Source: Candidatus Uhrbacteria bacterium RIFOXYB12_FULL_58_10 (lineage in GTDB: Bacteria > Patescibacteriota > Patescibacteriia > UBA9934 > GWF2-40-263). Taken from it: a stretch of DNA of 39,170 nt. The stretch lies in assembly GCA_943357025.1 (NCBI GenBank), contig CALRGA010000002.1:1-39170 (forward strand). The letters are read 5' to 3'. The position numbers were made by a program, and so were the translations under genes. A model generated the notes under the pieces. The model saw only the letters and a program-made list of their open reading frames with translations, was not told the origin of the DNA and did not search any database. This document shows positions 3,408 to 39,170 of this stretch, one piece after another (within the stretch, counting starts at the first letter, position 1; each line of letters opens with the position of its first letter).

Positions 3408-3416
3408 AACGAGAAG

Positions 3417-3425
3417 ATTATAGCA
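3417..3425 (-). promoter_or_regulatory. Extended -10 promoter (TGcTATAAT) for the AI-2E operon, leaderless-type
   Basis: The minus strand reads tgTGcTATAATcttctcgttATG. TATAAT is exactly 9 nt from ATG 3407 and there is no SD. No good -35, but the TGn extension is present. Confidence 0.4.
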
Positions 3426-3432
3426 CAATCGA

Positions 3433-3461
3433 TTGACGGAAGACGATTTTTCTGAGATACT
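3433..3461 (+). promoter_or_regulatory. Sigma70-like promoter of ssrA
   Basis: TTGACG (3433-3438), 17 nt, GATACT (3456-3461), ending 8 nt before the mature tmRNA 5' G at 3470. Confidence 0.5.
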
Positions 3462-3469
3462 TTGCTTCC

Positions 3470-3867
3470 GGGGCTGTCCGGGGTTCGCTAGGGACAGGAG
3501 GCCAGATGAGCAAGCCGAGGTTGTGAAGATCCTCGTAAATCCTCTTTGCAAAAAGACAATTGCCAACGTCTTCGCGAAGGCCAAGAACATGATCGCATCG
3601 GCGTTCTCCGTTCCGACCTTCTCCATGGTTGTCGCCTAATAGCAACAGCCCATCCGTCCCCTGACGTCCGATAGCGGGATCCGGGTGTTATAAGCATCGG
3701 GCTGGGTGATGCCGTTTCCGTCCAGCATCACCGAGGAGGCAGGCGGGACCGTTCGCATGGGTTTTGTCCCGCTCACATCATGCGACCGTATCCAGGCGGG
3801 ACTGAGCTTGAAGAAACATCCGGCTGAGCGTCCTTACACGGGAGTTCGATTCTCCCCAGCTCCACCA
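3470..3867 (+). ncRNA. ssrA: tmRNA (transfer-messenger RNA), one-piece
   Basis: The 5' GGGGCTG pairs with the 3' CAGCTCC-ACCA, including the G3:U wobble used by AlaRS. T-arm GGGAG-TTCGATT-CTCCC at 3840-3856. Internal tag frame GCC AAC GTC ... GTT GTC GCC TAA TAG (3562-3642) with a double stop. Adjacent to smpB. Confidence 0.9.
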
Positions 3868-3906: not shown

Positions 3907-4350
3907 CTATTCCTTCATCCGCGCCCGAATGTCCCGTTGCACGTCGCGCTTCTTCAAAACCTCGCGCTTCTCGTACTGCTTCTTTCCCTTCGCCAGCGCG
4001 AACTCGAGCTTGATGAGCGCCTGCTTGGTGTACACGGTTATCGGCACGAGCGTGAGGCCGTTCTCGTGGGTCTTGCCGATGAGCCGCCGCAGCTCGCGCT
4101 TGTGGATGAGAACCTTGCGCTCGCGGATCGGATCGTATCCCGGCTGTTCCCCGGCCGGCCCGTACTTCGAGACCGTCGCGCCCTTCAGCCACAGCTCGCC
4201 GCGGCGGATGTGCAGGAACGATCCCTGCAGCTGGATGTGCCCCGCCTTCACGCTCTTCGTCTCCGCCCCGGTCAATTTCAACCCGCCCTCGAGCTTCTCG
4301 AGGAACTCATAGTCGAACGACGCGCGCTTGTTGGTGGCGAGGGTTGGCAT
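3907..4350 (-). CDS. smpB: SsrA-binding protein SmpB
   Basis: MPTLATNKRASFDYEFLEKLEGGLKLTGAETKSVKAGHIQLQGSFLHI...LIHKRELRRLIGKTHENGLTLVPITVYTKQALIKLEFALAKGKKQYEKRE is a canonical SmpB sequence. Track ORF trimmed to ATG 4350, which is 9 nt from a -10 box. Confidence 0.9.
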   Translation of the reverse strand: MPTLATNKRASFDYEFLEKLEGGLKLTGAETKSVKAGHIQLQGSFLHIRRGELWLKGATVSKYGPAGEQPGYDPIRERKVLIHKRELRRLIGKTHENGLTLVPITVYTKQALIKLEFALAKGKKQYEKREVLKKRDVQRDIRARMKE

Positions 4351-4359
4351 AACGTGGGC

Positions 4360-4388
4360 ATCATAGCGCCGCGGAGGAGCGTTGACAA
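4360..4388 (-). promoter_or_regulatory. Sigma70-like promoter of smpB, leaderless-type
   Basis: The minus strand reads TTGTCA-17 nt-TATGAT-gcccacgtt-ATG (N9 to the start, no SD). Confidence 0.5.
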
Positions 4389-4426
4389 ACGAAAAAACCC
4401 AAGAGTTCATTTTTTATCGGCTTCCC

Positions 4427-24352: not shown

Positions 24353-24721
24353 TTATAGCACAGTTTTGGCGACGTACGGCCAGAAGATGACGGTTCCGAC
24401 GAGCAGCGAGACGACCGAGGCGATGAGGACGGCGCCGGCCATGATGTCCTTGATGTCGCGGACGACCGGGTGGATGCGTGGCTGAAAACTGTCGACGAGC
24501 CGTTCGAAGATGGTGTTGATGATCTCAAGCGTGAGGACGGCGCCGATCAGGAGAAGGATGATGAGAAACTGGTAGGTTGAGATTTTAAAGACGATTGAGG
24601 CGACGATCGCGCACACGGCCCCGACGACCTGGATGCGGAACGACTGCTCGGCCTTGAACACGACGGAGACGCCGCGCAGCGCGTGTCGAACGCTTGAATA
24701 CAAATCTTGTACGCGAATCAT
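24353..24721 (-). CDS. dgkA: Diacylglycerol/undecaprenol kinase (DgkA family)
   Basis: 122 aa with 3 TM helices. ..HALRG....FK.E.SFRIQ........., ..LEIINT.FE.LVD......HP..RDIKD..AGAVL.. are family motifs. ATGA overlap with the ybeY stop. Confidence 0.8.
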   Translation of the reverse strand: MIRVQDLYSSVRHALRGVSVVFKAEQSFRIQVVGAVCAIVASIVFKISTYQFLIILLLIGAVLTLEIINTIFERLVDSFQPRIHPVVRDIKDIMAGAVLIASVVSLLVGTVIFWPYVAKTVL

Positions 24722-25146
24722 ATGCGGGGATTTACTCCAAGCTTGGTCAGGATCCTCGCCTGGCGCGGGAACATCTTCTTCGCGTCCTTCGGCTCGACGT
24801 GGTCGAATCCGAACGTGTGAAGGACGCCGTGGACGATGAGGAAGACGAGTTCGTCCCGAGTGGAATGCCGCATCTCCCTCGCCTGCCGAACCGCCTGCGG
24901 GTAGCAGAGCAGAATCTCGTTGGTCGTTTCGAACGACAGAACGTCCGTCACGTAATCATGCCCGCGCCATTTCTTGTTTAATGCACGCATCGTCTTCTCG
25001 GAGACGAACGCGATCGACAACTCGACGGGCTTTTTAACCTTCAGTTCCGACGAACACTCGGCCAGCGCGGCCTCAACCAGGCGACGAGGAAGTCGCTGTC
25101 CGCCCCGAAGGATCTCCTGGTTCAGCTCGAATCCGATCAAAGCCAT
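24718..25146 (-). CDS. ybeY: rRNA maturation RNase YbeY
   Basis: ..LSIAFVSEKTMRALNKKWRGHDYVTDVLSF.......EI..CYP.A..QA.E......DEL.FL.VHGVLHTFGFDH (zinc-binding H..LH..G.DH). Track ORF trimmed to ATG 25146 (MALIGFE..). 10-nt overlap with the upstream gene. Confidence 0.88.
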   Translation of the reverse strand: MALIGFELNQEILRGGQRLPRRLVEAALAECSSELKVKKPVELSIAFVSEKTMRALNKKWRGHDYVTDVLSFETTNEILLCYPQAVRQAREMRHSTRDELVFLIVHGVLHTFGFDHVEPKDAKKMFPRQARILTKLGVNPRI

Positions 25147-26135
25147 GTCACGCTGTTCAGCATCATCTTGAACGTCTGGAGATAGTCGACCGTCGCCTTC
25201 GCGGCCGTGGTCATCTTTACCGTCATTACGGAATCCTTCGAGAACACGTAATTCGTCATCTGATCCTCGGACACGAGCATCGCGGAGCCGTTCTTGGTCG
25301 TCGTCTTCGTGACGGACCCGTCGATTTCCTGCTTCTTGTACCACGCATCGGGGGTCGTGCCTTCCGGCATCCCAAGCTTGGCGAGCGCGATCGTCACCGT
25401 CTCGCCGGACGTCGCGACGATCGTCACGAGTCCGTCCGCCGCGGCCGGCTCGACCTTCCATATGGACGGGTAGAACAGCGAGTAGCCGGTTCCCTGGTGA
25501 ACCTTCACGAGCCCGGCGGCATACAGCGTTCCCGGCGACGTTCCGGCGGGATTGTAGCGATGGTACACCTCGTTTCCATCCAGGAATCCGTCGGAGTCCG
25601 TGTCCGGAAGCCGTGAATTGGTCCCGTAGATCAATTTCTCCTCGATGTCCGTCAGGCCGTCCGAATCCGTGTCCGTTCCTGGGACGACGGCCGTCGGGAA
25701 CGGGCTTTCGACCGGCTTCGGCACCTCGACCGGCTTGGGAGTTTCCACCGGCTTTGGCGTCGGCTTCGTGGCAGGGGTCGGAGTTGGGGTTGGTTTCACG
25801 ACAACGGGAACGACGACCGGAACGGGCTCCGGCTTCGTCGCGACGATGATTCCCGTGACGGCGAGCGCGACGACGACGATTCCGCCGGCGCCAAGCGCGA
25901 TCTTTTTCTTCGTCGACATTCCCTTCTTCGGCGCGCCCGGAACCCCGGGCTTTGGCGCCACGGCCACCGGAGGAGCCGTAACGGGCCGTGCCGCCGGCGC
26001 CGGAACCGCCATCTTCTTTCCGGTCGCGCCATGACGGTATTCCGCCGGCATCACGAACATGGCGGGCTCCGAAAGAGGGGCTCCGGCCGTCGATGGCTTT
26101 TCCATCTGCTGTTGCGGGTTCGCGATGTCGGACAT
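25137..26135 (-). CDS. Single-pass membrane protein with a Pro/Thr/Lys-rich stalk and thrombospondin-type-3-like Ca-binding repeats
   Basis: TM IALGAGGIVVVALAVTGIIVA. Stalk KPTPTPTPATKPTPKPVETPKPVEVPKPVE. DTDSDGLTDIEEKLIYGTN...PDTDSDGFLDGNEVYHRYNPAG. C-terminal globular domain. Confidence 0.7.
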   Translation of the reverse strand: MSDIANPQQQMEKPSTAGAPLSEPAMFVMPAEYRHGATGKKMAVPAPAARPVTAPPVAVAPKPGVPGAPKKGMSTKKKIALGAGGIVVVALAVTGIIVATKPEPVPVVVPVVVKPTPTPTPATKPTPKPVETPKPVEVPKPVESPFPTAVVPGTDTDSDGLTDIEEKLIYGTNSRLPDTDSDGFLDGNEVYHRYNPAGTSPGTLYAAGLVKVHQGTGYSLFYPSIWKVEPAAADGLVTIVATSGETVTIALAKLGMPEGTTPDAWYKKQEIDGSVTKTTTKNGSAMLVSEDQMTNYVFSKDSVMTVKMTTAAKATVDYLQTFKMMLNSVTWL

Positions 26136-26146
26136 ATAAAAGTTCG

Positions 26147-26776
26147 TTACGGAGCCGTCGTTCCGAATAATTTGCCTGTGCCGTTCGGATTGTATCCGCC
26201 CTTTACCTCGGCGCCGTCAAGATACGTGTCGCCGTCGGTGTCGGATTTCAGCGGGTTGGTCTTGTACGTGGAAACCTCCTCCTTGTCGAACAACCCGTCG
26301 GCGTCCGTGTCGGCCGACGTCGGGCTCGTGCCGAGCTTTGCTTCCTCGGCGTCGGTGAGGCCGTCCTTGTCCCGGTCGACGGTGTCGACGGGCGGAGCCG
26401 TCGTCGCGGGAGTCGGCGTTTCCTCCGGCATCTCGTCATCCGGCGTCGTCACGGCCTTCGGCGGCGTCTTCACGACGGGAGCGACGACGGCCGGCGGCTC
26501 TTCGATCACGGCGGGCTCGACGGGAACCGCGTCCGTCTTCGAGGCCATCATGAAGTACGCGATCCCAGCGGCCGAACCGACGACCACGACGATCGCCGCG
26601 ACCACGATGACCGGCTTCCACGGGAACGAGCGGCCCGAAGACGAGCTCGAAGACGGCGCCGATTCCGGCACGACCTCTCCGACCCTGCGGACGATCTCCG
26701 ACGCGGGCGGCGGAGGCGGGGCCGCGGATTCAACACCCGCGAAGATATCCTCTGGGGGTTTGACGTTCTCGAACAT
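26147..26776 (-). CDS. Single-pass membrane protein with thrombospondin-type-3-like repeats
   Basis: Track ORF 26147..26920 trimmed to ATG 26776 (MFENVKPPEDIF..) because the upstream codons are the intergenic repeat elements. TM PVIVVAAIVVVVGSAAGIAYFMM. DRDKDGLTDAEEAKLGTSPTSADTDADGLFDKEEVSTYKTNPLKSDTDGDTYLDGAEVKGGYNPNGTG. Confidence 0.65.
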   Translation of the reverse strand: MFENVKPPEDIFAGVESAAPPPPPASEIVRRVGEVVPESAPSSSSSSGRSFPWKPVIVVAAIVVVVGSAAGIAYFMMASKTDAVPVEPAVIEEPPAVVAPVVKTPPKAVTTPDDEMPEETPTPATTAPPVDTVDRDKDGLTDAEEAKLGTSPTSADTDADGLFDKEEVSTYKTNPLKSDTDGDTYLDGAEVKGGYNPNGTGKLFGTTAP

Positions 26777-26785
26777 ATGGGGGAA

Positions 26786-26838
26786 GTGGATACGAATCAA
26801 CGAATTGGCTACGGAACTACGAATGCTACGGATTTTTT
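26786..26838 (+). repeat. AT-rich intergenic element, copy C (left half only)
   Basis: GTGGATACGAATCAACGAATTGGCTACGGAACTACGAATGCTACGGATT matches the first ~48 nt of copy A with about 6 mismatches (by eye). It ends in a T-run and lacks the right arm. Confidence 0.55.
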
Positions 26839-26846
26839 CCTCGTCT

Positions 26847-26879
26847 CCCCTCCTTCCGCAAGGAGGGGTTAGGGGGTGG
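26847..26879 (+). repeat. GC-rich hairpin element, intergenic copy, abutting a stop codon
   Basis: CCCCTCCTT (26847-26855), ccgc, AAGGAGGGG (26860-26868), plus the tail TTAGGGGGTGG. It ends 1 nt from the TAA (26880-26882) of the Cys-rich protein gene. Confidence 0.5.
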
Positions 26880-27680
26880 TTATTGGGAAAGTGTTCCTGG
26901 CCCGTACGGATTATAGCCACCCTGGATCTCGATGAGATCCGTGTACCCGTCGCCGTCGGAATCTAGGTTTGGGTCGGGTTCGACGATCGCGGGTTCGACG
27001 GGCGCCGGCTCATCGCGATCCGGCGGCCCTACCAGCTCGGCGCACATCTCTCGGTCGGCCTCGATGGTGAGCGCGGCACATGCGGCCTGGTCATCGGACG
27101 CGACCGCGGCCTCGTAGGCTGCCAGGTCGTCGCACGTCTCCTGATCCTTCCCTCGTTCCGCGCAATTAGCCGACGTCAGCGGCCCGTCTACCGCGGACGC
27201 GCAGTTCGTCTGCTTTTCGGCATCAGTGATCTTATCGCAGTATGACTTGTCCATTCCCGCAAGAGCCAGCTTGAGATAGATCGCACTCGCGCATTTCTCT
27301 GCCTTTGTCGCATCCTCGATCAACGCGCAGCTGTCCGCGTCGTTCCGCTCACGCGCAATCGTCCAAATGCACGAGTCGCGATCCTTCCCCTCCAGCTGTC
27401 CGCACACGCTTGCCGCACCGGTCGCCTTCGCAGCCAGCAAGACCTTCTTGCGACGACACTCCTCCGGATCCGGCTGCTCCGCGCATCCAACGAGCGACGC
27501 CGCAAGCTGCGTCTCAACACGATCCATGTTCTGCGTGGCAATCTCAACCTTCTGCCGGCTCCGCACGAACAGCACGGCCCCGATGATCAATGCGACCGCC
27601 AAGACCGCCGCCCCCGCAATGAGGGCGACGATCTTCCAGGGAGGACGCTGCGTTTCGGTTGATTGGTCGAAGCCGTTCAT
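26880..27680 (-). CDS. Single-pass membrane protein with periodic Cys-rich helical repeats and a C-terminal thrombospondin-type-3-like motif
   Basis: Start taken at ATG 27680 (MNGFDQS..), 5 nt after the giant gene's TGA; the track start 27701 is a TTG inside that gene. TM WKIVALIAGAAVLAVALIIGAVLFV. 14 Cys spaced ~10-25 aa apart (..DPEECRR..SVCGQL..DRDSCIW..DADSCAL..AEKCAS..KSYCDK..QTNCAS..SANCAE..QETCDD..QAACAA..REMCAE). C-terminal DSDGDGYTDLIEIQGGYNPYGPG. Confidence 0.65.
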   Translation of the reverse strand: MNGFDQSTETQRPPWKIVALIAGAAVLAVALIIGAVLFVRSRQKVEIATQNMDRVETQLAASLVGCAEQPDPEECRRKKVLLAAKATGAASVCGQLEGKDRDSCIWTIARERNDADSCALIEDATKAEKCASAIYLKLALAGMDKSYCDKITDAEKQTNCASAVDGPLTSANCAERGKDQETCDDLAAYEAAVASDDQAACAALTIEADREMCAELVGPPDRDEPAPVEPAIVEPDPNLDSDGDGYTDLIEIQGGYNPYGPGTLSQ

Positions 27681-27685
27681 AGGGT

Positions 27686-30600
27686 TCAAGGTACGGGACA
27701 ATACGTGAATGCGATGTCGTCCAATGAGATGTATCCGCCGCCGTTGAAATCAACCGTCATCGGAATGTTCATTTCCTCGCCGGTACACTCGAAGTTCGTC
27801 GGGAACGGAAGCTCGCGATTGTGTCCGCTCGTAACCGTTCCAGGCGTCAACGTCTCGTCGACGGTCAGGCCGACGGTGACGCCGAGAACTGAGTCGATAA
27901 TCGCGTCGTACATCGTGGCTACGCCAGCCTCATCCTGCGCAGAGTATGAGTATGTCCTGGTAAGACAGTCCGATATGTCGTCGTAATCCTCTCCACAATC
28001 ATCGCTTGACAAATGAGCCATGTATGAGGCGTACGCATTCGTTGAAGTGGCAGTTATGCCTGCCGTGTAGATAAGAACGTCTCCGGACCCGCGAATCGCC
28101 GCGTCAGCTCCGACGTCATTGTCAGCAGAGCAACTGTTTAACAAACCATCTGCGACCTCCTTTGTGCAGCAGTAGTAATTGTAATAATCTGTTTCATTAT
28201 CACTTTCCTTGCCGCATGCGAGCGGGAGATATGAGCCGTAGCACGAGCCGGCGTTTGTAGAGGTCGTGCAGTAATCGTTTGACCTGTCTTCGAAGACCTC
28301 ACCGTCAGAGAGAAGTACGATGATTTTTGCATCTGCTGTGGTTTGATCCAGCTGTTGGATCGCATATTTCAACCCAGCATAGAACGGCGGTCCGGAATCG
28401 ATATCTGTCCCTGCTGCGTAGCCTTCCACCGTTGTAATCAGATCATTTTCGTCATTTGAGCCAAGCTCCATGTCAATAAGGTATCCTTCATTTGCGGTAC
28501 CAGGATTATAGAGCGCCCCGAGTCGCAGAAGTCCGATTTGCAAATCGCCAGACGATAGGGAGTCATACAGAGTGCTGATCGCGCTAGCTTCGGCGGCACT
28601 TACAAGGGCAATGCGACTTTGAGTTGAAGTATCATCCGACGCAATGGTAGCCCCGTTGATATCCCTGGTCATCGTGACGGTATAATCCGTAATGAAGTAC
28701 ACAGCCACGCTCGGGGTTTCGACGTTGCTCGTGTTCACATCCGCCGTGATCTTGGTTCCCACCGTGCAAGCCGGCAAACTCAGCGAGGCCTGGTCGATTT
28801 CTTCGCTCAACGGATCATAACTGTACAGGTCGATCGAATCCGAGGCGGCGGCGCCGACCTCTTCGGTCGTGGCGAGGACAGCGGTGGTTTCGTAGGTGAA
28901 CGGACAGGATGCCTCGCAAGTGAGCGAGCAGGTCGGGGCGACGCAGGTGCCGCCGTCGCAGGCGCTCTTGTCATTTATTCTCGTGGTGTGCGCGGTACCC
29001 GTCGAATCCGGATTCATCGTGCAGTATTCCCCGTTCTGCGTCCCGCCGTTGCAGATACCCATCTTGCGACAGGTGAATCCGCTTTCACATCCGGTTGCGG
29101 TCCCTTCATCCGTCGCGTCGCACGTTCCAGCCTGATCCATGGCATGATCGTCGACCGCGCCGTCACTGTCCGCATCGATGTATGCGTTGTCAAAGCAGTA
29201 GTACGGCAGGTCGCTTCCATCGCAGTACTCGGACCCGTTTACCTCGCCGTCGCCGCAGTACTCGCCCGATGTGGTCTTGTACTGGCAGTTGGCGGTGCAG
29301 TAGTGGCAGGTGCTGTCGTAGCTGGCGTCGCACGCCGTGCCGTTGTCCGACCCGTCGTCGCACGACTCCACGCCGGAGTACACCTCGCCGTCGCCGCACA
29401 CGTTTTCCTCGCAGGAAGTCGTGCACGCGTCGGTATCGTCGTCGTTGCCGTCGTCGCATTCTTCGGTTCCGTCCACGGACCCGTTGCCGCAGTATTCCTC
29501 GCTCACGCACGAGGTCCAGTCGTCCCAGGTACACATCAGGCGCTCGGCCGTCTTGCACGTTCGGGTTCGGGTCAGGTTGTAGGTGACGGTTCCGCACTCG
29601 AACTGACAGGTCGTGCGGCCGTCGACGGCATCCCCGATATACGAATCATGATCTGTTGCCCCGTCGGGTTGATCATCCTCACACGGGATCCCCTGGTCCG
29701 AAACGTCATCACAAAACCCATCCGTGCATGAACCACTGTCACAATTGGCAGGCGTTCCGTAACATGGCGTGCCAACGTCGCTCGCTCCGGAACAGACGAT
29801 CGAGGTTCCGCACGCCGCGCTTCCGTCGGGCGCCGTGGTTCCCGTTCCGCACGTTCCCGACGAGCAGTCGTCGTCGGTCGTGCATTCCGTTCCGTCGTCG
29901 CACAACGCGCCGGCCCAGGCCGCGTAATCGCCGTCGCATTCCTCGGAACCGTTGATTTCCCCGTCGCCGCAGCTCGGGCCAGGGCTCTTGCAGTCGTACG
30001 AGCAGGTTCCGGTCGGCCTTCGCTCCCACTGGCCGTTGGAATTCGCGCAGGAATTGAGGTACGCCCAGCTGGACGTGCCGTACGTCGCGTCGGTCCCGCT
30101 CATCAGATCACTGAAATTCGTTGATTCTCCGCAGTCGCATTCCTCGCCGCCGGCAAGGTAACCGTCGCCGCAGAAGAAGGCGGAATCGGTTGAGCAGTCG
30201 TCGCCGCAGTGGCCGTACGTGCCGTTTGCATCTCCGTCGTCGCACGTCTCGCCGGTTTCTACGACGCCGTTGCCGCAGGAATAATCTACGCACGCCGCTC
30301 CATCCTCATCCTCCGATTCGGTAACCGTCCTGTACGAGGAGCAGTCGCTCTCACAGGTCGTAGAAATTGTCCCGCCGTCCGTCCCACAGTCAATTGCCTC
30401 GCAGGTTCCCGTCGAGCAGTCGTCGTCGCTCGAGCAGAGGACCCCCTCGCCGATGCCGTCTCCGTCCGTATCGCACGCCGTATCGCCGGAGACGACGTCA
30501 CCGATCTCGCACGCCTCGTAGTTGTCGCTTGTCTCGTCCGTATTTCGAATCCCGTCTCCGCAGATGGCGGAAACGCCGATTTCGTCGCCGGTACAGAATG

Positions 30601-33600
30601 CTTCCGCGCTCGATCCTTTGATGAATCCCCTCTCCAGATCAGCGGAGTCGCCGTCATAATCATACTCAAGCGTCACCGTCCCGAGGTCGGTCGGATCGAT
30701 CTCGCCGTACCAGACGTCATCCTCGTACTCAAGCGCCGCCTTCAGCTCGAACGACAGGCCGCCGACGCTTCGGTAGCCGTAGACGTGCGATTCGTCGGGA
30801 CACATGAAGGTGGCCGCGATGGAATTCCAGCAGGTGGCAGACTCGTAGTTCTCCCCGTCGCAGGCAAAAAACTCGTTCAGCGGATCGGACGGTACCGAGG
30901 AGCCTAGCGCGTTGCCGAGCCCCGATGCCCATGATGGCCAGGCGCTAAAGGAAAACGAGCTGATGAACGTACCGTCCGCGAGCTTCGGAACGGACGCCTC
31001 GCACGTCTCGTCGCCCGGGCAGGAATCGTCGGAGGTGCACGCCTGGTTGGTCGTGACCGAACACAGGCCGTTCGCCTCGCCGTAATCGTCGAGCAGGCCC
31101 GCGATGACGGTTACGTCCTGGAGGCGCTGTAGATCGCGCGTCAGCTTGGCCTTTTCCGCGTCGCAGGTCTGGCCGCTTTCGCAGTCTCCGTCCCATTCGC
31201 AGGCGATAAATTCGCCCGTGTCGGCATCCGTCTGGTAGCTTTCATCCGCGGCGGACTGGCATAGGTTGACGTCCGTGACGATGCTGTCGTTCGCGTTGAA
31301 CGACCAGTTCTCAAGAATCTGGGAGAAGATTTCCTGGGATGTCGCCTCGGCATCTTCCGTATAGGAAACGGCGACCACGTTCGAATAGATCGTGCCGAAC
31401 TTCACGTTCGTCGCGGCGACGTACGTGGTGTTTCCGTCCGTGACGGCGTTGTATCCGTCCACGGTCGTGCCCGACGGCGATCCGGTGAAACCCATTTCGT
31501 CGTACCAGGCGTACGGGGAAAGATACGTCCCGTTCGGCAGCACGCGCACGCCGATGGCGTCGGACGTTCCCTCCACCTTGAAGATGAGCTCCTGGATGAT
31601 GTCCGTCGTGTACGAGGTCACGTCGATGGGAACGTACGTTCCGTCCACAAGCGTGCCGATTTCCGGAAGATCATCCGACTCGTCGCCGGCGACGCCGTAG
31701 TCGCGGCAGTAGAAGAAGCTGAATTTCGACAGGGAATCCACGTACGGGAACCCGATCGTCGGGAGGTTGTCGCAGACGTTCGCAGTGAGAAGAAGCGTTC
31801 CGCTTACGGCGTCGTTTGCGTCCTCGAACGTGTTGGATTCGTCGAACGTCGCGGTCGAGACGACGTACTCGGTACCGGTGAGCCCGGACGCGGTCGCGGT
31901 GGACGTCTCGACATCCGTTGACTCGCTTGCTTCGGGCGTGTCGATGACGTTCGTGTTCGTCGTCGAGTCCGCCGCGACGGACGTTCCCCACGTCCAGCTC
32001 CAGCCGTACGCGGTCGTTTCCTGGATGGCCACCTCCTGGCCGCCGCGGATCGAATAGGCGCTCGCAAGAACAGAGTGCGTCTCGTCCGCCGCGGTGAAGT
32101 ATCCGATACTCGGATCGGCGATGTACGGAACGGTCAGCGAATCAACCGTTCCAAGGTCCTCGACCGTTACCGAGTCGAGCGTACAGATTTCCGGTCCGGT
32201 CGTGAACGTGCTGACGACAATGTTCGCGTCGCCTTCCAGCCCTTCCAATCTCACGGCCCCCGTCCCTGACGCGTCGATGCTCACCGCGTTCTCGGAAAGC
32301 ACGCCGGAGATCGTGTCGGCGGCATTCGTCGGATCTGCGTCTTCCACCACCACGAGCTGGTACTCTGAGTCAGCCTCAAGCGCGTCGGCGATGTTCAGCG
32401 CGACGTGGGATCCGACGGAATCGGTCATCGATTCGGTCGTAAGATCGTACGTGACGGGAATGATACAGGCGAAAGTTTTGTCCTGATCGGCGGCCGAAAG
32501 CTCGGCGTGCGCGACGGACGCGAAGATTTGGCTCACGGAACGGACAACCCAATTCCAAGCCCTGGCGATCCAGGACCGCGACGTCGATTCCGAGAACGCG
32601 AGGTACGATTGCGTGTACGTCGACGGACAGTTCAAGGCGGTAACCTCCTCGCCGTCGAGCAGTGTCAGCTCGAGATACAGGTTCTGGTGACCCTCGCCGT
32701 AGTTGAAGATGCCGTCCTCGTTCGAATCGGTCCAGGAGGACAGCGACGTGGAATCCATGACATCCGTGAAGTTGACGTAGATCGCCGTGTTTCGACACAC
32801 GTCGCCATCGCCGTCCATCGGATACTGTCCATCGACCTCCGGGCGCTCAAAGCAGCAGCCCGACGTCCCGCTTCCGTACAGCTCGGTATTGCCGCAATCC
32901 TCATCGGTAACGCTGGAGCAGATGAGCGTCAGGGCACCATCGCCGGTTTCCCCGCTATCCGACTCGGTCGCGGTAATCGTCGCGGACGCCGTTCCGTCGA
33001 CGACGTCGGACGCAGCCGATGCGCTGATCCTTGAGACACCCCAGTAACCGTAGTGTGCGTCTGTGCTGGCGGCCGCGGCATCACATTCCTCGCCGCCGGT
33101 GTCCTCGTCGCCCGTAATCACGCCGTCGCCGCAGTAGCTCGAATAATCCAGGGAAGATCCCTCGCTCAAGCCTTCCGACGAGCAGCCGTCTCCGTCATCC
33201 GTGCCGCCGTCGTCGCAGTCCTCGGATTGATCCGACCATGCGCCATCCACGCCCGTATAATCGACGCGACCGTCTCCGGAACACGGAGCGACGACCGGCA
33301 GGCAGGAACCGCCACTCGATCCGTCATCCATGTCGTCGCACAACGAACCAATTCCCGTGCAGTTTACTCCTGACAACGAGCACTCGAATGCGCAGACGTC
33401 GGCGCCCTCATACAAACATTCCGCTGAGCAGCCGTCGTCGTCGACGGTGTCGCCGTCGTCGCAGTCCTCGCCCTCCTCGGGAACGCCGCCATTTCCGCAG
33501 GTAGAGTATGATCCCTCGTCAACCACCTCGCCTCCCTCGTTCAGACAGACCGAGGAACAGCCGTCGCCGCTGAAGGAGTTATCGTCGTCGCAATCCTCGC

Positions 33601-36600
33601 CTCCTGTGTACTTCGCATAATCGATGGTTCCGTCGCCGCAGCGGGTGCCCGCCTTGCTAGAGCCGGCGTTGAGACAAACGGAGGAGCAGCCGTCCGTGTC
33701 GATCGCATTTCCGTCGTCGCACTCCTCGCCGAGCGAAGATTCGAAGCTACCGTCGCCGCACGTGGCGGGATCCGAATTTCCAACGAACAGGCAGGACGAC
33801 GAGCAGCCGGATCCGCCGTCGCATTCCTCACCGCCGGCCGTAAGGTCGCCGAAGGAATCCTCGTTCGACGTGTGCGTCACGTCCCCGTCGCCGCACACGG
33901 GGTCGTACTTGGACAGAGTCACGCCGGAGTGAAGACAGCTGGTGGAGCATCCGGCCTCGAGACGCGTGGTCAAAAGCAGCGGATCCACAGCGGAACGCAG
34001 CATTGTCGCTACGTCGTCCGTCGTTTCCGGCTTTGCGTTTGACGTCGAATCCACCGACTCCCACGCGTCCCAGTCGTATCCGGACGCGTCAAGCTGCTGG
34101 CCATCCACCTCGCAGTCGTCTGGAGAGCCGAACGGAACGGCCTGCCAGAGCGTCTGCTCGCCAATAATCGTCGCGGACGCGGCGACCGGATCGGTCACGA
34201 CGCGGTCGACCGCACAAACTTCCGTCGTGTCCTTGGTCTTGAATTTCCAGGAAAAGGCATCCTCAAAGTATCCGTTGTCATCGGAAGGATAGTTGCTGCC
34301 CGACTCGGACAGGGCCACGCCGGAAACGGACGTGACCGATCCGTCGATTACGATACGGTACCAAGTATTGGCCTCGAATTGCTTCTGGCCTTCGCCCGAA
34401 TGAACGAGATCAAGCAAGGTGGTTCCGTAGACATGGCTCACGGAGTAGTCCGAGGCCGTCCAGAGGTCGCCAGCCACGATCTCCTCGTACGCGCACAAAT
34501 CATCATGGCACGTATATATTTCCACCGTGTCCACCGAGAGATCGCTTGCCATCGCGGTATTGAACGTCGCGCTGATCGCCGCGTTCAGGCACACCGTGTC
34601 GCAGCTCGGGGTCCAGGAAACGACCTCCGGATCGGTGAAGTTGATGGTGAGCTCGCCATTGTCTTCCGGGTCGACGTCACCGTCGGGGTTGGCGGCGGTC
34701 GCCTTGATGTTGACCGGCGATCCGCTAAGGGTTTCGGCGAGCGCGGTGGCGACGTTGGCGCAGGAATAGACGGTCAATCCGCCCTCGGATGTTGTGGACG
34801 CAACGGACGCGGGAATCGACGCCAAATCCGACTCAGACGACGTCCAGGTCCAACCGTACGCCGTGCAGTTCAGAGCGACGCAATAGTCGTTTTCAGAAAG
34901 TGCCTGGCCGGAATAATTCACCCGTTCGTTCTCAGCAACCGCGGTAAACTCCGACGGCATGGCGGACACGGACCCGATCTTGCACGGTTCCGTCGACGTG
35001 GAAGTCGTGAACGTCCAGGAGTAATCGTTCGCCATGTACGCGGCCGGGGTGTCTTCCGTTTCAATCGTGTGGATGCCGGACGAAAGGAGCGTCACGGTAT
35101 ACGTGGTGCTTGGAAGGAACTCGCCATCCGCTGGGTTCCACTCGAAAAGATATGCGCTCGTAGTGCGGATCTCGCCTTCCACGACGGTTTCATCCTCCTT
35201 GGTCACCACGACTTTCGGTGCGGGATCCGTCCAATCAATCGCCTGGTCGAACGTCGCGGTCACCGCCGAGTTTACGCAGATGTCCTCGGACGCGCTTCGG
35301 AAATTCCAAGGCGCCGGCGAGGTTCCCCTGCCCGATTCGCAAAAGATACTGACCTTCGGAGTCGCCGGAATGTTACCGGTGGAGAACATCCAGGAGTAGT
35401 GAGACTCCTCGGGTTCCTTGGGACAGCTCACGGAGCATGATCCGTTGCCGCAGCATTCCTCGCCCGTTCCGCAGGTAATCGTCCCCTCTGTACAGCTTCC
35501 CACCTGGAAATTCAGGCCGTTGGAGCGGTAGCCGGAAGAATCGAGGACGTACACGGGTCCGGTGGCAGATCCGACCGGGACGGTGTCGGTGGTAACGGAC
35601 GCGTCGTACCAGCTCAGGGTCTGCGCCGAAACTTCCGAGGAGAACAAAACATCGGCCATGTCATATTTCGAGCCAAGATTGTCTCCCGAAATCACGACGC
35701 CGTCCGCCGTAACGGTTGCCGTCGACGCGGGACCGGAGCTCGGGTCGATGTTACAGATGCCCGGGCCGGGAGTTCCTCCGAGGATCGTGAACTCGACCCC
35801 TTCGCTCTCAGCGCCCGGGACGGTTCGAACTGTGACCGCGTACGACGATCCCGTCGCGACGGGATCGCCCGATCCTTCTGTCGCATAGTATTCAGCCGGA
35901 ACCTTGAACGTAATTTCCGTATCCTCCCACGTGTCGTCGCCGCACGCCTCGGGGAAATCGAAATCGCCGTACGCGATCCCCGTCGAGTCCGTGAAGATGA
36001 CGTTTCCCTTCCCCGTGCCGAAGCCCGTTCCGGTAATCGTGACGTACTGCCCCGGCGGCCCCCAGTCGTCGTGCGAGTCACAGCTGTCGCCGTCGCCGCG
36101 CCCGTCGCATTCCTCGCTGAATCCGTCCACGGCAGCACAAAGCGATCCTCCCTCGCTCCCGCTGCACCCCATCCATCCGGAAACCACCGCCGCGATAATC
36201 GGATCGCTCGACGTTTCCGAGTCGATAACCGTGAATGAAACCTTGTTGGAACCCTGGCGCAGCGAGACGCAGTCGCCGTCCGAGCCGCAGTCCTCGTCAG
36301 TGTCGCAGAACGCGTCGGATCCCGAGCAGCGCATCGTCTCGCAGGTTTCGCCGGATGCCTCCGCGCAGTCCAAGTCCGTCGAGCAAATCTCGCCCCGCAC
36401 TCCCTGGGACGTCGCGCAGACGTAATCCCCCACCCAGACCTGGGTAGAATAGGCGCGCGCGTTCAGCAGCGGAACCTGCGCGGAGATTTCCGTGTCCTTC
36501 CAGCTGAAGTATTCGGAAGCCTCGTAGTTTTCAAAGTAAACCGTGGACGTCCCTTGGTCCGTTTCTCCCGCCGAAAAGAAATTATTTCCTGACAATCCGA

Positions 36601-38371
36601 CCACGGAGCGTCCGACCCCAAACGTCGGCGAAGGCGGGCAGAGGCCCGGGCGAACGACCGAGTTGACGTCGAAGTCGTTGATCGTCGCGCCGTAATCGTC
36701 GTTCGTGTCGTCGACGTACGCCTCGGTGTGCGTCGCGTCGATTCCGGTCGTGACGCGAATCGGGCCGTCTTTCATCGAGCCGGAAACCTGCACGATGATC
36801 TGCTCGTCCGTCCAGGTGGAACCTGTCTCGCACTGGTACTCGGACGCCGTCACGGGATTCGAGTACGTTCCGTTCGTATCGACCGCGCCGAGGAACTGAA
36901 CGGAGCCAGGGGTCGTGCCGAACCCGGAACCGATGATCGAGACGATATTTCCTTCCGCGCCGTCTCCGGGCGAGACGGACGTGATCTGCGGGATGCTCGC
37001 GCAGACGCCGTCGATGACGAGTCCCGTCGTCGAGTCAATCTCTCCCGAGCAATATCCGCTCGCGCATTGCGCGTTCGACGTGCACGGCGACCCGTCGCAC
37101 GCTCCGCAGGTGTTTCCGCCGCAGTCGACTTCTTCCTCCGCAAGGTCCTCCGAGACGTCCGGAACCACGTCCTGCACGCCGTTGTTGCATGACGCCGGAT
37201 AGATTTCGACCGTCACGTCGGACGAGGTTTTCGAATGCCCGGCACAATCGACTCCTGTTGCCCGAACGGCGTGCGTTCCCGTCGCGTAGTCGGAAGAGAC
37301 GTACCATTCCGTTCCGTCCGCCGTGGAGAAGTAGTTCTCGGAGGAAAGTGCGCCCACGGTCGAATCTGTGGCCAGGGACGCGTCGTAAATTGAGTCTCCG
37401 TTGTCGATCGTAAAATAGAGGCTGGAGACGCCTGTGTCATCCAAGGTATATGCCTGAAGAGGGCGTATCTCGTTCGTAAACACGGCAGCTCCCTCCTCCG
37501 GCGCCTTCAGGTCTATTGTCGTCGGCCCCTCGGTGTCCACGTCCGATCCCGTCGTGAACGAGAACGTGCACGGGTACGTCGCGTCGCACTTGTACGACAG
37601 GTCGTTCGAGCTCTTCAGGAATGTCTCACTCAGCTCGATATCATAGTCCGTATTCGCGTCGAAGCAGCGGTCCGACACTTTATATTCAGCTCCGCAATCC
37701 TGGGTCGGAACGAACGAGATCGATTTCGACGAGGTCGCTGCGCTGCCGTCCGTCGCCTGGAACGTTCCAAGAACGTCCGTTCCCGACTTTTGGACGCGGA
37801 TTCCGCCGTTATTGATCGACTCAAGCGTTGCTCGTTGGCTGAAGAGAAACTGCAGCTGGAGATTCTTCAGGGCATACGCGCATTCCGTGTTGACGCTCGT
37901 CAGCACGAACTGGCTCGACGTCCCTCCCCCGTCGCCGTACCCTCCTCCCGTTCCGCCGCTCCCCGACGACGTGCTCGTTCCGCCAAGCGCGCCGACCAGC
38001 TGTCCGAGAATGAACTGCACGATCGCGAATGCCGACAGGATGATGACCAGCCCGACAATCGCGCTGGAGAAAAGCTTCTTCGCGCTTTTAATCTTCTCGT
38101 CGTTCCCGCCGGACGTCATGTATTTGAACCCGCCGATGAGGATCAGGATCACCGCGAGGATGCCGAGGATCGACATCACGGTTCGGATGAGCCGCGCGAT
38201 TGTGATCGTGAGTCCGTCTCCGGTCGAGAACCCGGCCTGCTCGGCAAAGGTGCTGAGGCCGGACGTCGGATCGACGACCTGGGCAAACGCGTGCGGGGCA
38301 ACCGCAAGGGCTCCTGCCGTCACGAAGACGGCGACAAGGATCGAGAGGAGGCTCTTGCGGGAAAACATCAT
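27686..38371 (-). CDS. Giant (3,561 aa) secreted/membrane-anchored multidomain surface protein: signal peptide, TrbC/VirB2-like two-helix anchor, Ig-like and IPT/TIG-like modules, Myxococcus-type cysteine-rich (DUF4215-like) repeat arrays, C-terminal vWA-like domain
   Basis: Single uninterrupted 10,686-nt ORF with gene-like GC3 bias throughout. aa 1-30 MMFSRKSLLSILVAVFVTAGALAVAPHAFA|Q. aa 55-128 ..IARLIRTVMSILGILAVILILIGGFKYMTSGGNDEKIKSAKKLFSSAIVGLVIILSAFAIVQFILGQL. IPT-like PQITSVSPGDGAEGNIVSIIGSGFG. About 13 CGDG/CGNG...E(E/D)CDDG...DGCS..C units (aa 1493-1765 and 2604-3055). vWA-like ..VAVYFITDYTVTM....KIIVLLSDGE.. Confidence 0.85.
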   Translation of the reverse strand: MMFSRKSLLSILVAVFVTAGALAVAPHAFAQVVDPTSGLSTFAEQAGFSTGDGLTITIARLIRTVMSILGILAVILILIGGFKYMTSGGNDEKIKSAKKLFSSAIVGLVIILSAFAIVQFILGQLVGALGGTSTSSGSGGTGGGYGDGGGTSSQFVLTSVNTECAYALKNLQLQFLFSQRATLESINNGGIRVQKSGTDVLGTFQATDGSAATSSKSISFVPTQDCGAEYKVSDRCFDANTDYDIELSETFLKSSNDLSYKCDATYPCTFSFTTGSDVDTEGPTTIDLKAPEEGAAVFTNEIRPLQAYTLDDTGVSSLYFTIDNGDSIYDASLATDSTVGALSSENYFSTADGTEWYVSSDYATGTHAVRATGVDCAGHSKTSSDVTVEIYPASCNNGVQDVVPDVSEDLAEEEVDCGGNTCGACDGSPCTSNAQCASGYCSGEIDSTTGLVIDGVCASIPQITSVSPGDGAEGNIVSIIGSGFGTTPGSVQFLGAVDTNGTYSNPVTASEYQCETGSTWTDEQIIVQVSGSMKDGPIRVTTGIDATHTEAYVDDTNDDYGATINDFDVNSVVRPGLCPPSPTFGVGRSVVGLSGNNFFSAGETDQGTSTVYFENYEASEYFSWKDTEISAQVPLLNARAYSTQVWVGDYVCATSQGVRGEICSTDLDCAEASGETCETMRCSGSDAFCDTDEDCGSDGDCVSLRQGSNKVSFTVIDSETSSDPIIAAVVSGWMGCSGSEGGSLCAAVDGFSEECDGRGDGDSCDSHDDWGPPGQYVTITGTGFGTGKGNVIFTDSTGIAYGDFDFPEACGDDTWEDTEITFKVPAEYYATEGSGDPVATGSSYAVTVRTVPGAESEGVEFTILGGTPGPGICNIDPSSGPASTATVTADGVVISGDNLGSKYDMADVLFSSEVSAQTLSWYDASVTTDTVPVGSATGPVYVLDSSGYRSNGLNFQVGSCTEGTITCGTGEECCGNGSCSVSCPKEPEESHYSWMFSTGNIPATPKVSIFCESGRGTSPAPWNFRSASEDICVNSAVTATFDQAIDWTDPAPKVVVTKEDETVVEGEIRTTSAYLFEWNPADGEFLPSTTYTVTLLSSGIHTIETEDTPAAYMANDYSWTFTTSTSTEPCKIGSVSAMPSEFTAVAENERVNYSGQALSENDYCVALNCTAYGWTWTSSESDLASIPASVASTTSEGGLTVYSCANVATALAETLSGSPVNIKATAANPDGDVDPEDNGELTINFTDPEVVSWTPSCDTVCLNAAISATFNTAMASDLSVDTVEIYTCHDDLCAYEEIVAGDLWTASDYSVSHVYGTTLLDLVHSGEGQKQFEANTWYRIVIDGSVTSVSGVALSESGSNYPSDDNGYFEDAFSWKFKTKDTTEVCAVDRVVTDPVAASATIIGEQTLWQAVPFGSPDDCEVDGQQLDASGYDWDAWESVDSTSNAKPETTDDVATMLRSAVDPLLLTTRLEAGCSTSCLHSGVTLSKYDPVCGDGDVTHTSNEDSFGDLTAGGEECDGGSGCSSSCLFVGNSDPATCGDGSFESSLGEECDDGNAIDTDGCSSVCLNAGSSKAGTRCGDGTIDYAKYTGGEDCDDDNSFSGDGCSSVCLNEGGEVVDEGSYSTCGNGGVPEEGEDCDDGDTVDDDGCSAECLYEGADVCAFECSLSGVNCTGIGSLCDDMDDGSSGGSCLPVVAPCSGDGRVDYTGVDGAWSDQSEDCDDGGTDDGDGCSSEGLSEGSSLDYSSYCGDGVITGDEDTGGEECDAAAASTDAHYGYWGVSRISASAASDVVDGTASATITATESDSGETGDGALTLICSSVTDEDCGNTELYGSGTSGCCFERPEVDGQYPMDGDGDVCRNTAIYVNFTDVMDSTSLSSWTDSNEDGIFNYGEGHQNLYLELTLLDGEEVTALNCPSTYTQSYLAFSESTSRSWIARAWNWVVRSVSQIFASVAHAELSAADQDKTFACIIPVTYDLTTESMTDSVGSHVALNIADALEADSEYQLVVVEDADPTNAADTISGVLSENAVSIDASGTGAVRLEGLEGDANIVVSTFTTGPEICTLDSVTVEDLGTVDSLTVPYIADPSIGYFTAADETHSVLASAYSIRGGQEVAIQETTAYGWSWTWGTSVAADSTTNTNVIDTPEASESTDVETSTATASGLTGTEYVVSTATFDESNTFEDANDAVSGTLLLTANVCDNLPTIGFPYVDSLSKFSFFYCRDYGVAGDESDDLPEIGTLVDGTYVPIDVTSYTTDIIQELIFKVEGTSDAIGVRVLPNGTYLSPYAWYDEMGFTGSPSGTTVDGYNAVTDGNTTYVAATNVKFGTIYSNVVAVSYTEDAEATSQEIFSQILENWSFNANDSIVTDVNLCQSAADESYQTDADTGEFIACEWDGDCESGQTCDAEKAKLTRDLQRLQDVTVIAGLLDDYGEANGLCSVTTNQACTSDDSCPGDETCEASVPKLADGTFISSFSFSAWPSWASGLGNALGSSVPSDPLNEFFACDGENYESATCWNSIAATFMCPDESHVYGYRSVGGLSFELKAALEYEDDVWYGEIDPTDLGTVTLEYDYDGDSADLERGFIKGSSAEAFCTGDEIGVSAICGDGIRNTDETSDNYEACEIGDVVSGDTACDTDGDGIGEGVLCSSDDDCSTGTCEAIDCGTDGGTISTTCESDCSSYRTVTESEDEDGAACVDYSCGNGVVETGETCDDGDANGTYGHCGDDCSTDSAFFCGDGYLAGGEECDCGESTNFSDLMSGTDATYGTSSWAYLNSCANSNGQWERRPTGTCSYDCKSPGPSCGDGEINGSEECDGDYAAWAGALCDDGTECTTDDDCSSGTCGTGTTAPDGSAACGTSIVCSGASDVGTPCYGTPANCDSGSCTDGFCDDVSDQGIPCEDDQPDGATDHDSYIGDAVDGRTTCQFECGTVTYNLTRTRTCKTAERLMCTWDDWTSCVSEEYCGNGSVDGTEECDDGNDDDTDACTTSCEENVCGDGEVYSGVESCDDGSDNGTACDASYDSTCHYCTANCQYKTTSGEYCGDGEVNGSEYCDGSDLPYYCFDNAYIDADSDGAVDDHAMDQAGTCDATDEGTATGCESGFTCRKMGICNGGTQNGEYCTMNPDSTGTAHTTRINDKSACDGGTCVAPTCSLTCEASCPFTYETTAVLATTEEVGAAASDSIDLYSYDPLSEEIDQASLSLPACTVGTKITADVNTSNVETPSVAVYFITDYTVTMTRDINGATIASDDTSTQSRIALVSAAEASAISTLYDSLSSGDLQIGLLRLGALYNPGTANEGYLIDMELGSNDENDLITTVEGYAAGTDIDSGPPFYAGLKYAIQQLDQTTADAKIIVLLSDGEVFEDRSNDYCTTSTNAGSCYGSYLPLACGKESDNETDYYNYYCCTKEVADGLLNSCSADNDVGADAAIRGSGDVLIYTAGITATSTNAYASYMAHLSSDDCGEDYDDISDCLTRTYSYSAQDEAGVATMYDAIIDSVLGVTVGLTVDETLTPGTVTSGHNRELPFPTNFECTGEEMNIPMTVDFNGGGYISLDDIAFTYCPVP

Positions 38372-38377
38372 AGCAGT

Positions 38378-39170
38378 TTATTCGTAGGAATCTGGAAGCA
38401 GGTGGGTGTCTCCTGGATTGGCCGTGCCGTAGCCGTCCGGGTACGTTGTTTCACAGGCTTTTTCCTGCGGTTGACCGTTGCAGCAGTAGGCAGTCCCGGC
38501 CTTCGTCCCACACATATTGGTGGAAGATCCAATGCCGTCAACGTTCGCCTTCGGTCCATCGGGCGGAAACATACAAATCTGGTACGCCGACTTCACGTTA
38601 CGCATCACAACAGGGTCGTATGCCCAGCCAAGGTCGTCGATGCTAACCATCGTCGGATGGTCGATGCTGGCGGTGGTGTACAGCGCGTCGCCATCGCCGT
38701 CCAGGAAGTCTGTCTTGCCCGTCGTGAACCAGAACTGGTACCACGGGTCGGGCCAGAGCGATACGTTGTCGGTGTTCAGCGTTGACGAGCGCATCGGGAC
38801 GGAAAAGTCGACCGTGACCGGCGCGTCGTTGGCCGCTTCCTCCTCGCGAATGTCGGGACGCATCGCCATGATGTACGGGACGACGTTGTTGATCTCGTCG
38901 GTGATCGTGTTCGTCCAGTATGCCGTGTCATCGGGCGGACCCTCACCCTCCTCGTCCTCGTCGCCGTCGAGCGAGTTCGCGGCCGCGTCCACGAGCCCGT
39001 CGAACGAGACGCCCACGGGCTCGGCCTGCGGGGCGTCGGTGAGCGAGACCGTCGCTGCCTTCGCCGTGATCGTCAGCTCGTCGTCGCTGCCGTCATCGGT
39101 CGCGGGAAGGCAGTAGATGGTGTCGCCGCACGGGTCGACGCCGCACGCCTCGGTGGGCGTGAACTCGATG
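38378..39170 (-). CDS. Surface protein with an Ig-like (SbsA/Big_5-style) module and a Cys-rich C-terminus; 5' end off the right edge
   Basis: The track ORF 38378..39016 begins at an internal GTG. My translation of the same frame stays open to the window edge (..IEFTPTEACGVDPCGDTIYCLPATDDGSDDELTITAKAATVSLTDAPQAEPVGVSFDGLVDAAANSLDGD..). C-terminal ..CMFPPDGPKANVDGIGSSTNMCGTKAGTAYCCNGQPQEKACE... The stop is 6 nt before the giant gene's ATG. Confidence 0.6.
   Translation of the reverse strand, partial: IEFTPTEACGVDPCGDTIYCLPATDDGSDDELTITAKAATVSLTDAPQAEPVGVSFDGLVDAAANSLDGDEDEEGEGPPDDTAYWTNTITDEINNVVPYIMAMRPDIREEEAANDAPVTVDFSVPMRSSTLNTDNVSLWPDPWYQFWFTTGKTDFLDGDGDALYTTASIDHPTMVSIDDLGWAYDPVVMRNVKSAYQICMFPPDGPKANVDGIGSSTNMCGTKAGTAYCCNGQPQEKACETTYPDGYGTANPGDTHLLPDSYE

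Follow-up and report, generated by a model that had tools for sequence, protein, structure and literature searches.

In a stretch of DNA of 39,170 nucleotides (nt; hereafter the window) from an uncultured freshwater Uhrbacteria-type bacterium of the candidate phyla radiation (CPR), one open reading frame (ORF) encodes a giant protein of 3,561 amino acids (aa) that opens with a pilin-type module. Judged by its sequence, the giant's N-terminus truly belongs to the VirB2-like T4SS_pilin family (PF18895), known from the type IV secretion systems (T4SS) of monoderms and Patescibacteria. From N- to C-terminus, the protein comprises a signal peptide, the T4SS_pilin hairpin, a Gly/Ser linker, Ig-like domains including TIG and Big_5, Cys-rich acidic repeats and a vWA-type end. 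An earlier note on this DNA had claimed that a TrbC/VirB2-type hairpin, normally found in small proteins, here serves as the N-terminal anchor of some 3,400 extracellular residues; the peptide it quoted is present exactly at 37982-38281 of the minus strand, which corresponds to aa 31-130 of the 3,561-aa ORF. With aa 1-155 as query, PF18895 reached 44.4 bits (gathering score 26.6 bits; E 1.8e-11) and covered model positions 3-71 of 71; the whole giant as query still gave 38.9 bits. All parts of the family's layout are present: a signal peptide, two hydrophobic helices and a short basic loop with the T-S/A-G-G signature, whose T and G are invariant in 19 of 19 aligned modules. The match to TrbC/VirB2 itself was weaker. 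PF04956 aligned end to end yet stayed sub-threshold (17.7 bits, E 0.004; gathering score 27.9 bits), and by this profile the module is without demonstrable membership in that family; a precomputed PF04956 match is also found on about a quarter of the closest family members (best 120 of 3,784 module-profile matches). The NF045849 profile for Mbov_0395-family pilin-like conjugal transfer proteins gave 40.3 bits for aa 1-155 alone, at its cut-off of 40 bits, and 34.5 bits for the whole protein.

The relatives of the module point the same way. Searched by itself, the module finds stand-alone pilins as its nearest proteins (117-199 aa, 46-63% identity), the best of them at E 1e-24 among 5.8 billion database proteins, and its identity to Patescibacterial stand-alone pilins of 110-170 aa is 46-66%; two of the 'short' module matches (P0001 and P0009) are truncated fused proteins. 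A profile built from the module retrieves 3,784 proteins, and the best 120 are annotated as pilins of Uhrbacteria, Magasanikbacteria, Kerfeldbacteria and other Patescibacteria. These 120 measure 109-167 aa, as anticipated for ordinary proteins of this type, which leaves the 3,561-aa giant outside the usual size of the family. Over the 70-residue core, mean identity is 0.48 between giants and stand-alone pilins, 0.45 between giants and the products of the adjoining partner gene described below, 0.53 among giants and 0.62 among stand-alone pilins. Comparison of the module profile with PDB sequences returned no pilin, only spurious repeat matches to designed 'Pizza' proteins. A Foldseek search of the predicted hairpin against the PDB gave nothing at E<=0.001 (rank 1, the conjugation pilus of the archaeon Aeropyrum pernix, had E 1.5), a search that lacks discriminating power because a two-helix hairpin is too simple a fold. 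A tblastn search of the module against plasmids found one marginal match (E 0.04), a 151-aa 'pilin-like conjugal transfer protein' on a Pontibacillus megaplasmid, with a VirB4-like ATPase and a cell-wall hydrolase 4 kb downstream. The proximity of this match to a VirB4-like ATPase provides an independent link between the module family and T4SS.

The predicted order of signal peptide, helix, K-rich loop and helix was confirmed by hydropathy and by an AlphaFold2 model. Within the first 190 residues, aa 64-82 and aa 100-126 are the sole stretches outside the signal peptide with a Kyte-Doolittle value above 1.6. AlphaFold2, given an alignment of 19 modules, folds two long helices (aa 53-85 and 91-128) around a 5-residue turn, with a mean predicted local distance difference test score of 83.7. 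The intervening loop, KYMTSGGNDEKIKSAKK, carries five K against two D/E. With a cleavable signal peptide ahead of two hydrophobic helices, this basic loop would face the cytoplasm and the C-terminal part would be external, and from hydropathy, charge and domain types we infer an N-out/C-out hairpin, in agreement with the earlier note. The C-terminal ~3,400 aa contain exclusively domain types known from extracytoplasmic proteins (TIG, Big_5, disulfide-rich repeats and the vWA-type end), and the Ig-like set detected with Pfam and NCBIfam comprises a Big_7/Big_13-like domain, three TIG and two Big_5 domains. The ectodomain holds 170 Cys and is strongly acidic (590 D+E versus 103 K+R). Such an acidic, Cys-rich, Ig-like and vWA-ended chain belongs outside the cell, probably as an extracellular Ca2+-binding fibre; a cytoplasmic C-terminal part was rejected on its domain types, Cys content and acidity. 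The earlier note's reading is supported, as neither of the two outcomes that would have told against it, a missing pilin-profile match and a cytoplasmic C-terminal part, occurred.

The C-terminal end of the window giant has no Pfam VWA or VWA_2 match of its own. Among 11 aligned orthologues, the C-terminal 350 residues match VWA_2 in eight and VWA in seven. A profile of these C-termini matched the vWA domain of collagen VI in the PDB (1.7e-11) as well as the pilus or fimbrial tip adhesins GBS104, Mfa5 and PilB, the last a modular type IV pilin of S. sanguinis. Most orthologues retain the metal-ion-dependent adhesion site (MIDAS; DxSxS...T...D) as DLSGS, GTPT and L(T/S)DG. In the window giant the motif is degenerate, with DYTVT in first position, the GTPT threonine gone and LSDGE retained; its nearest relative, P0146, likewise reads D-Y-T-N-T.

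The fusion of pilin module and ectodomain is real and old, and recurs, together with the partner described below, in well beyond one hundred related lineages. Contigs from three independent freshwater/lake metagenome runs span the junction (37400-38900) without indels, and about 70 other GTDB genomes, mostly of Uhrbacteria, carry the same continuous ORF. Giants at related loci are colinear with that of the window, at 37-59% identity across ~3,400 residues. A search with aa 1-700 returned orthologues (P0019-P0022) together with long proteins of 458-1,172 aa that join PF18895 to Big_5 or TIG; counterparts of the Gly/Ser linker are present throughout this set (P0019-P0028). With aa 31-330 as query, a complete HMMER search of 1.84 billion representative proteins yielded 34,341 matches at E<=1e-3, 3,822 at E<=1e-10 and 139 at E<=1e-30, the last group mostly 3,000-4,000 aa long. 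The best 150 included 147 newly returned representatives, 84 of them at least 3,000 aa long (maximum 4,017 aa) and 141 with a single module starting near residue 42; the closest was P0146 (78% identity, 3,525 aa). We give practically no credence to an assembly or frameshift artefact that joined a small pilin gene to a giant gene, and rejected it on the indel-free contigs of the three runs, the ~70 GTDB genomes and the 141 of 147 representatives with the same architecture. Within the first 700 residues of 66 orthologues, conservation peaks in the hairpin (48-54% identity, against 37-44% in the ectodomain and 27% in the signal peptide), whose conserved motifs IAR.IR, GGF..MT..G and AK are common to free pilins.

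Databases hold this architecture as unnamed or 'hypothetical' proteins, apart from one JGI record titled 'Bacterial Ig-like domain/Type IV secretion system pilin', and pilin modules on large ectodomains receive no mention in the Patescibacterial T4SS survey, the Southlakia study or a recent T4SS review. An exact look-up of the giant protein gave no record, and a search for RNA-seq runs gave none. Many GTDB records that bear the gene cassette described below (L008, L017, L018, L022, L026 and others) are third-party (TPA) assemblies titled 'uncultured Gammaproteobacteria bacterium'; on a Patescibacteria-specific cassette, these titles look like placeholder or wrong taxonomy. The module also occurs in a further arrangement: P0163, P0169, P0196, P0245, P0283 and P0291 are single chains of 455-1,147 aa with five to at least nine tandem T4SS_pilin hairpins, separated by linkers of 15-40 residues, and P0245 has an additional C-terminal domain. 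By their layout, such poly-pilins would be either fused pilin arrays or multi-pass membrane proteins made of pilin units.

The giant is accompanied by a partner gene directly upstream, whose 3' end lies in the window. Its stop codon TAA (38378-38380) is 6 nt from the ATG of the giant (38371); at related loci the two genes are as a rule 3-6 nt apart or overlap slightly, suggesting translational coupling. The window partner is 43% identical to the partners at two related loci (L004 and L005), with the motifs CG.D.YCLP and NSLDG in common, and all seven full-length partner homologues aligned (533-992 aa) carry an N-terminal T4SS_pilin module. At Uhrbacteria loci the partner measures about 600-690 aa. 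Scanning its C-terminal region against one genome per GTDB species gave 346 relatives, among which the window's own species is absent, the best identity being 67%. We examined the best 80 loci, which belong mostly to Candidatus Uhrbacteria and otherwise to Magasanik-, Falkow- and Komeilibacteria. A partner with the same module sits directly upstream of a giant at about 80 loci; at essentially all that are long enough, the giant follows within a few bases 3' of the partner and begins with the module (85-117 bits).

The gene order at related loci is signal peptidase I, HisRS, S21, YqeY, partner, giant and small TSP3-repeat membrane proteins. In the window it runs from the partner 3' end through the giant, three small TSP3/single-pass proteins, YbeY, DAGK, FtsA, FtsZ, NrdR and HtrA to pyruvate kinase. 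Since similar TSP3 genes lie 3' of the giant in other lineages, they are probably part of the same cassette. In L001, L003 and L005, which span distant lineages, the gene for signal peptidase I (Peptidase_S26) is found four genes upstream of the partner; this position may be mere housekeeping synteny (LepB-HisS-S21-YqeY). The YqeY (GatB/YqeY-domain) protein encoded upstream of the partner is about 255 aa long in Uhrbacteria instead of the usual ~147 aa (L004:785-1561, L015:3721-4512, L021:7040-7804, L036:3246-4049). Its extra C-terminus consists of a hydrophobic segment ending in A-x-A and a hairpin with ...GGF.YMT(A/S)..RD..H..A. If this hairpin is real, three consecutive genes would carry one, in one case joined to a cytoplasmic domain.

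Genes for VirB4, VirB6 and VirD4 are all absent from the 39-kb window. No T4SS genes were recognised within 10 kb on either side at the 80 related loci, where the VirB4 test was a single query: a phmmer search of all ORFs of the 1.5 Mb of fetched loci with one distant sequence (Bacillota VirB4) gave no match, a weak negative. Stand-alone pilins are encoded elsewhere. Those nearest to the giant's module lie in eight-gene arrays, and in one Uhrbacteria assembly the cassette (L055) is accompanied by six stand-alone pilin genes that form an array of their own (L089).

Table 1. Coordinates of the giant gene, its parts and the adjoining cassette genes in the window
Feature	Position	Strand	Basis and remarks
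Partner gene, 3' end, 263 codons	38378..39170	-	Continues past window edge; homologue alignment
Giant ORF	27686..38371	-	3,561 aa, ATG start; direct reading, Pfam/NCBIfam, orthologues
Sec-type signal peptide, aa 1-30	38282..38371	-	Basic n-region MMFSRKS, hydrophobic core, AFA↓Q; read directly and by hydropathy
PF18895 T4SS_pilin match, aa 52-121	38009..38218	-	Pfam; core of the finding
Helix 1, aa 53-85	38117..38215	-	Amphipathic start IARLIR, hydrophobic core aa 64-82, conserved GGF.YMT at end
Basic loop, aa 83-99 (KYMTSGGNDEKIKSAKK)	38075..38123	-	Turn TSGGN at aa 86-90; predicted cytoplasmic
Helix 2, aa 91-128	37988..38101	-	Hydrophobic core aa 100-126; AlphaFold2 and hydropathy
Gly/Ser-rich flexible linker, aa 127-155	37907..37993	-	Between hairpin and first ectodomain; direct reading
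First IPT/TIG Ig-like domain, aa 461-541	36749..36991	-	Pfam; more TIG matches C-terminal of aa 541
Big_5 bacterial Ig-like domain, aa 1027-1123	35003..35293	-	Pfam; second copy further on
Cys-rich acidic repeats (TIGR02232 myxo_disulf_rpt / DUF4215), ~aa 1530-1720	33212..33784	-	Boundaries approximate
vWA-type domain and conserved terminal beta-domain, ~aa 3220-3561	27689..28714	-	Orthologue alignment/profile
Small single-pass membrane protein, Cys-rich ectodomain, C-terminal TSP3-like Ca-binding motif	26880..27701	-	First downstream of giant; homologue in L076
Small single-pass membrane protein, TSP3_bac repeats	26147..26920	-	Homologues 3' of giant in L058 and L085
Small single-pass membrane protein, Pro-rich spacer, TSP3-like repeats	25137..26135	-	Homologues 3' of giant in L003, L058 and L085

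Some observations concern other parts of the window. The YbeY-containing ORF (24718-25461) encodes 247 aa, with the Pfam domain confined to aa 127-241 and an Arg/Asp-rich N-terminal part; as that part overlaps the preceding gene, the true YbeY start is probably internal. A tmRNA (3470-3867, plus strand) adjoins smpB (3907-4410, minus strand) and is overlapped by a mechanically called ORF (2388-3626), whose real product is an AI-2E-family transporter starting further downstream. ARAGORN called a tRNA-Ala(CGC) at 13387-13467, inside an HlyD-like ORF (12860-14650), where the Rfam tRNA model is silent at its gathering threshold; the call is probably a false positive.

What might a pilin module do at the foot of such a protein? 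Our tentative preference is for a complex that resides in the membrane, where pilin-type hairpins would pack the giant against its partner and perhaps free pilins, with a vWA-tipped fibre pointing outward. The Sec signal peptide would be cut off, helix 1 would re-enter the membrane while the TSGGN...K loop remains cytoplasmic, and helix 2 would direct export of the ectodomain as an internal signal. Some 3,400 acidic, disulfide-rich residues would thereby be threaded to the outside, still held to the membrane by the hairpin, a topology read from sequence. As a lateral packing module of the pilin type, the hairpin could join the giant to its partner, and possibly to free pilins, in a hetero-oligomeric base within the cytoplasmic membrane, from which a long Ca2+-stabilised fibre would extend, its tip binding a host or substrate of what is presumably an episymbiotic cell. 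We propose packing because the hairpin is conserved like stand-alone pilins, the upstream partner shares the module and YqeY appears to carry a weaker copy. The conservation of the hairpin, the motifs in common with free pilins and the core identity of 0.48, against 0.45 for the partner, argue against a merely greasy anchor. Residence in the membrane is favoured because the YqeY fusion would be membrane-bound and no VirB4-like gene was found near any cassette, at the related loci with the single query; the YqeY copy, if the similarity is real, would be unable to leave the membrane, since the YqeY domain is cytoplasmic. An adhesin character is suggested by the orthologues' C-terminal vWA matches, which include pilus-tip adhesins. 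Several points weigh against this picture, however. The conservation of the hairpin could reflect a constraint on membrane insertion or export instead of packing. The pilin-likeness of the YqeY hairpin was seen solely with our in-house hidden Markov model of the module (25-43 bits); Pfam's PF18895 did not detect the YqeY C-terminus, which makes the similarity tentative. Given the degenerate MIDAS, metal-dependent ligand binding by the window copy is doubtful, and 'pilin', as a label for PF18895 proteins, is itself an inferred one.

Alternatively, a T4SS might pull the giant and its partner out of the membrane and build them into a VirB2-like pilus, where they would probably prime the filament or form its tip, so that the ectodomain is displayed as a host-binding adhesin, a possibility we regard as real though unlikely. 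The module falls within the sequence range of stand-alone pilins (mean core identity 0.48 versus 0.62 among these), cassette and stand-alone pilin array occur together in one assembly (L055 and L089), and the matches of the vWA end include pilus-tip adhesins, among them PilB, a modular type IV pilin. In the F-pilus structure the pilin termini lie on the filament surface, so that C-terminal residues could be displayed outward from a conjugative pilus. Solved conjugative pili have the basic turn of the helix-loop-helix on the luminal side and bind lipid 1:1 with pilin (PMC12037004). The role of adhesin is also vacant, as the survey of Patescibacterial T4SS found no PrgB-type adhesin. A pilus subunit of this kind is, however, hard to reconcile with the lack of recognisable T4SS genes beside the cassette, whether in the window or within 10 kb at the 80 loci, and no Patescibacterial T4SS pilus has been observed so far. 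A 3,400-aa appendage on every subunit would be sterically incompatible with a five-start pilin lattice; because such appendages would clash, a filament could accommodate few copies at best. Nor could a YqeY-hairpin fusion be extruded. The more specific proposal that the partner (~620 aa) and the giant (~3,500 aa) are minor pilins nucleating or capping a T4SS pilus, and thereby provide the host-binding tip and the missing adhesin, is one to which we attach a lower likelihood still.

Comparably unlikely, in our judgement, is that the hairpin is a generic two-helix membrane anchor or export device for large secreted domains in the cell-wall-poor CPR, its pilin-type interaction having been lost. 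The module is found on many unrelated ectodomains (P0023-P0028, 458-1,172 aa), it occurs five to nine or more times in tandem in single polypeptides, suggesting a versatile membrane building block, and the cassette lies amid housekeeping genes. Yet its conservation extends beyond hydrophobicity, to two invariant loop residues (T and G) and to motifs common to free pilins (IAR.IR and AK), and exceeds that of both the ectodomain and the signal peptide, while the presence of a hairpin in two, perhaps three, consecutive genes points to a common interaction. Least probable of these readings, and by analogy with TrbC/TrhA trimming, the giant could be a precursor cut just after helix 2 (A-L-G↓G; A-T-G in relatives) into a pilin of normal size and a free or non-covalently attached ectodomain. 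Helix 2 ends in a conserved L..A followed by small residues, and C-terminal cleavage is documented for TrhA. The TrbC pilin of RP4 is matured by TraF, a peptidase of the S26 type, and an S26 signal-peptidase-I gene lies four genes upstream at related loci. That gene is perhaps simply a housekeeping lepB in conserved order, however, and the hydrophobic stretch of helix 2 (~27 residues) is far longer than the core of a cleavable signal peptide.

If the membrane-resident complex, or a pilus bearing giant subunits, proves correct, it would bear on how these bacteria contact other cells. The lifestyle attributed to Patescibacteria is one of attachment to host cells. According to a published survey, adhesins have not been detected for Patescibacterial T4SS; T4SS and VirB2-like pilins are essential in the sole species tested. 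The family of giants (3,000-4,000 residues), with its constant partner bearing the same module, offers a concrete candidate for cell attachment, whether through membrane-rooted fibres with pilin-type packing or through giant subunits shown on a pilus. More generally, the VirB2-type hairpin is a reusable building block that stands alone, forms tandem poly-hairpins or serves as the foot of giants. For annotation, this means that proteins labelled 'pilin' are not necessarily small, and it also bears on the evolution of monoderm-type T4SS pilins.

Among known systems, the closest are the VirB2-like pilins of the same phylum, which have been found with PF18895 among other pilin profiles and are widespread in Patescibacteria, often in arrays of 2-11 genes near virB4, and are essential in Southlakia epibionticum (PMC12102498, PMC10633639, PMC12857230). 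Like these pilins, including those of the Southlakia array, the giant has a signal peptide, a helix, a TSGG(N/D)..K loop and a second helix. They are 110-170 aa long, end right after helix 2 and occur in tandem arrays, often near virB4, whereas the giant has ~3,400 extra residues, one module per gene, a housekeeping neighbourhood and a second fused gene alongside. With the TrbC/VirB2/TraA/TrhA pilins of Gram-negative T4SS (PF04956) it has in common a signal peptide, a helical hairpin, a basic inter-helix loop and a weak full-length alignment (E 0.004), but the score is sub-threshold and the solved pilins give no significant sequence or fold match. Unless the extension of the giant were cleaved, it could be neither cyclised nor trimmed by a few C-terminal residues in the manner of TrbC/VirB2. 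The Mbov_0395 family (NF045849), known from integrative and conjugative elements of Mycoplasma and plasmids of Bacillota, resembles the module in that its profile scores at the cut-off for aa 1-155 and the best plasmid match lies near a VirB4-like ATPase; unlike the giant, its members are small, stand-alone and located inside conjugation clusters.

The design also recalls two further systems. In modular type IV pilins such as S. sanguinis PilB (PMC8179133), an adhesive (vWA) module is grafted onto a pilin module, an analogy in which the pilin parts are not homologous. PilB has a class III signal peptide, a single N-terminal helix, type IV pilus machinery and a graft of a few hundred residues, whereas direct reading of aa 1-60 of the giant found the prepilin-peptidase motif G↓F/M...E to be absent and an ordinary Sec signal peptide (AFA↓Q) in its place. 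Should giant and partner be minor pilins of a T4SS after all, they would give the VirB2 class of pilins its first members with large functional modules grafted on, paralleling the modular type IV pilins. The very long, domain-rich extracellular stalk with an adhesive end recalls the 7,651-aa adhesin of Mobiluncus mulieris, a giant Ig-repeat protein of a monoderm (PMC10619420). Adhesins of that type are held by a sortase/LPXTG cell-wall anchor, whereas the giant described here would be rooted by an N-terminal membrane hairpin of the pilin type.

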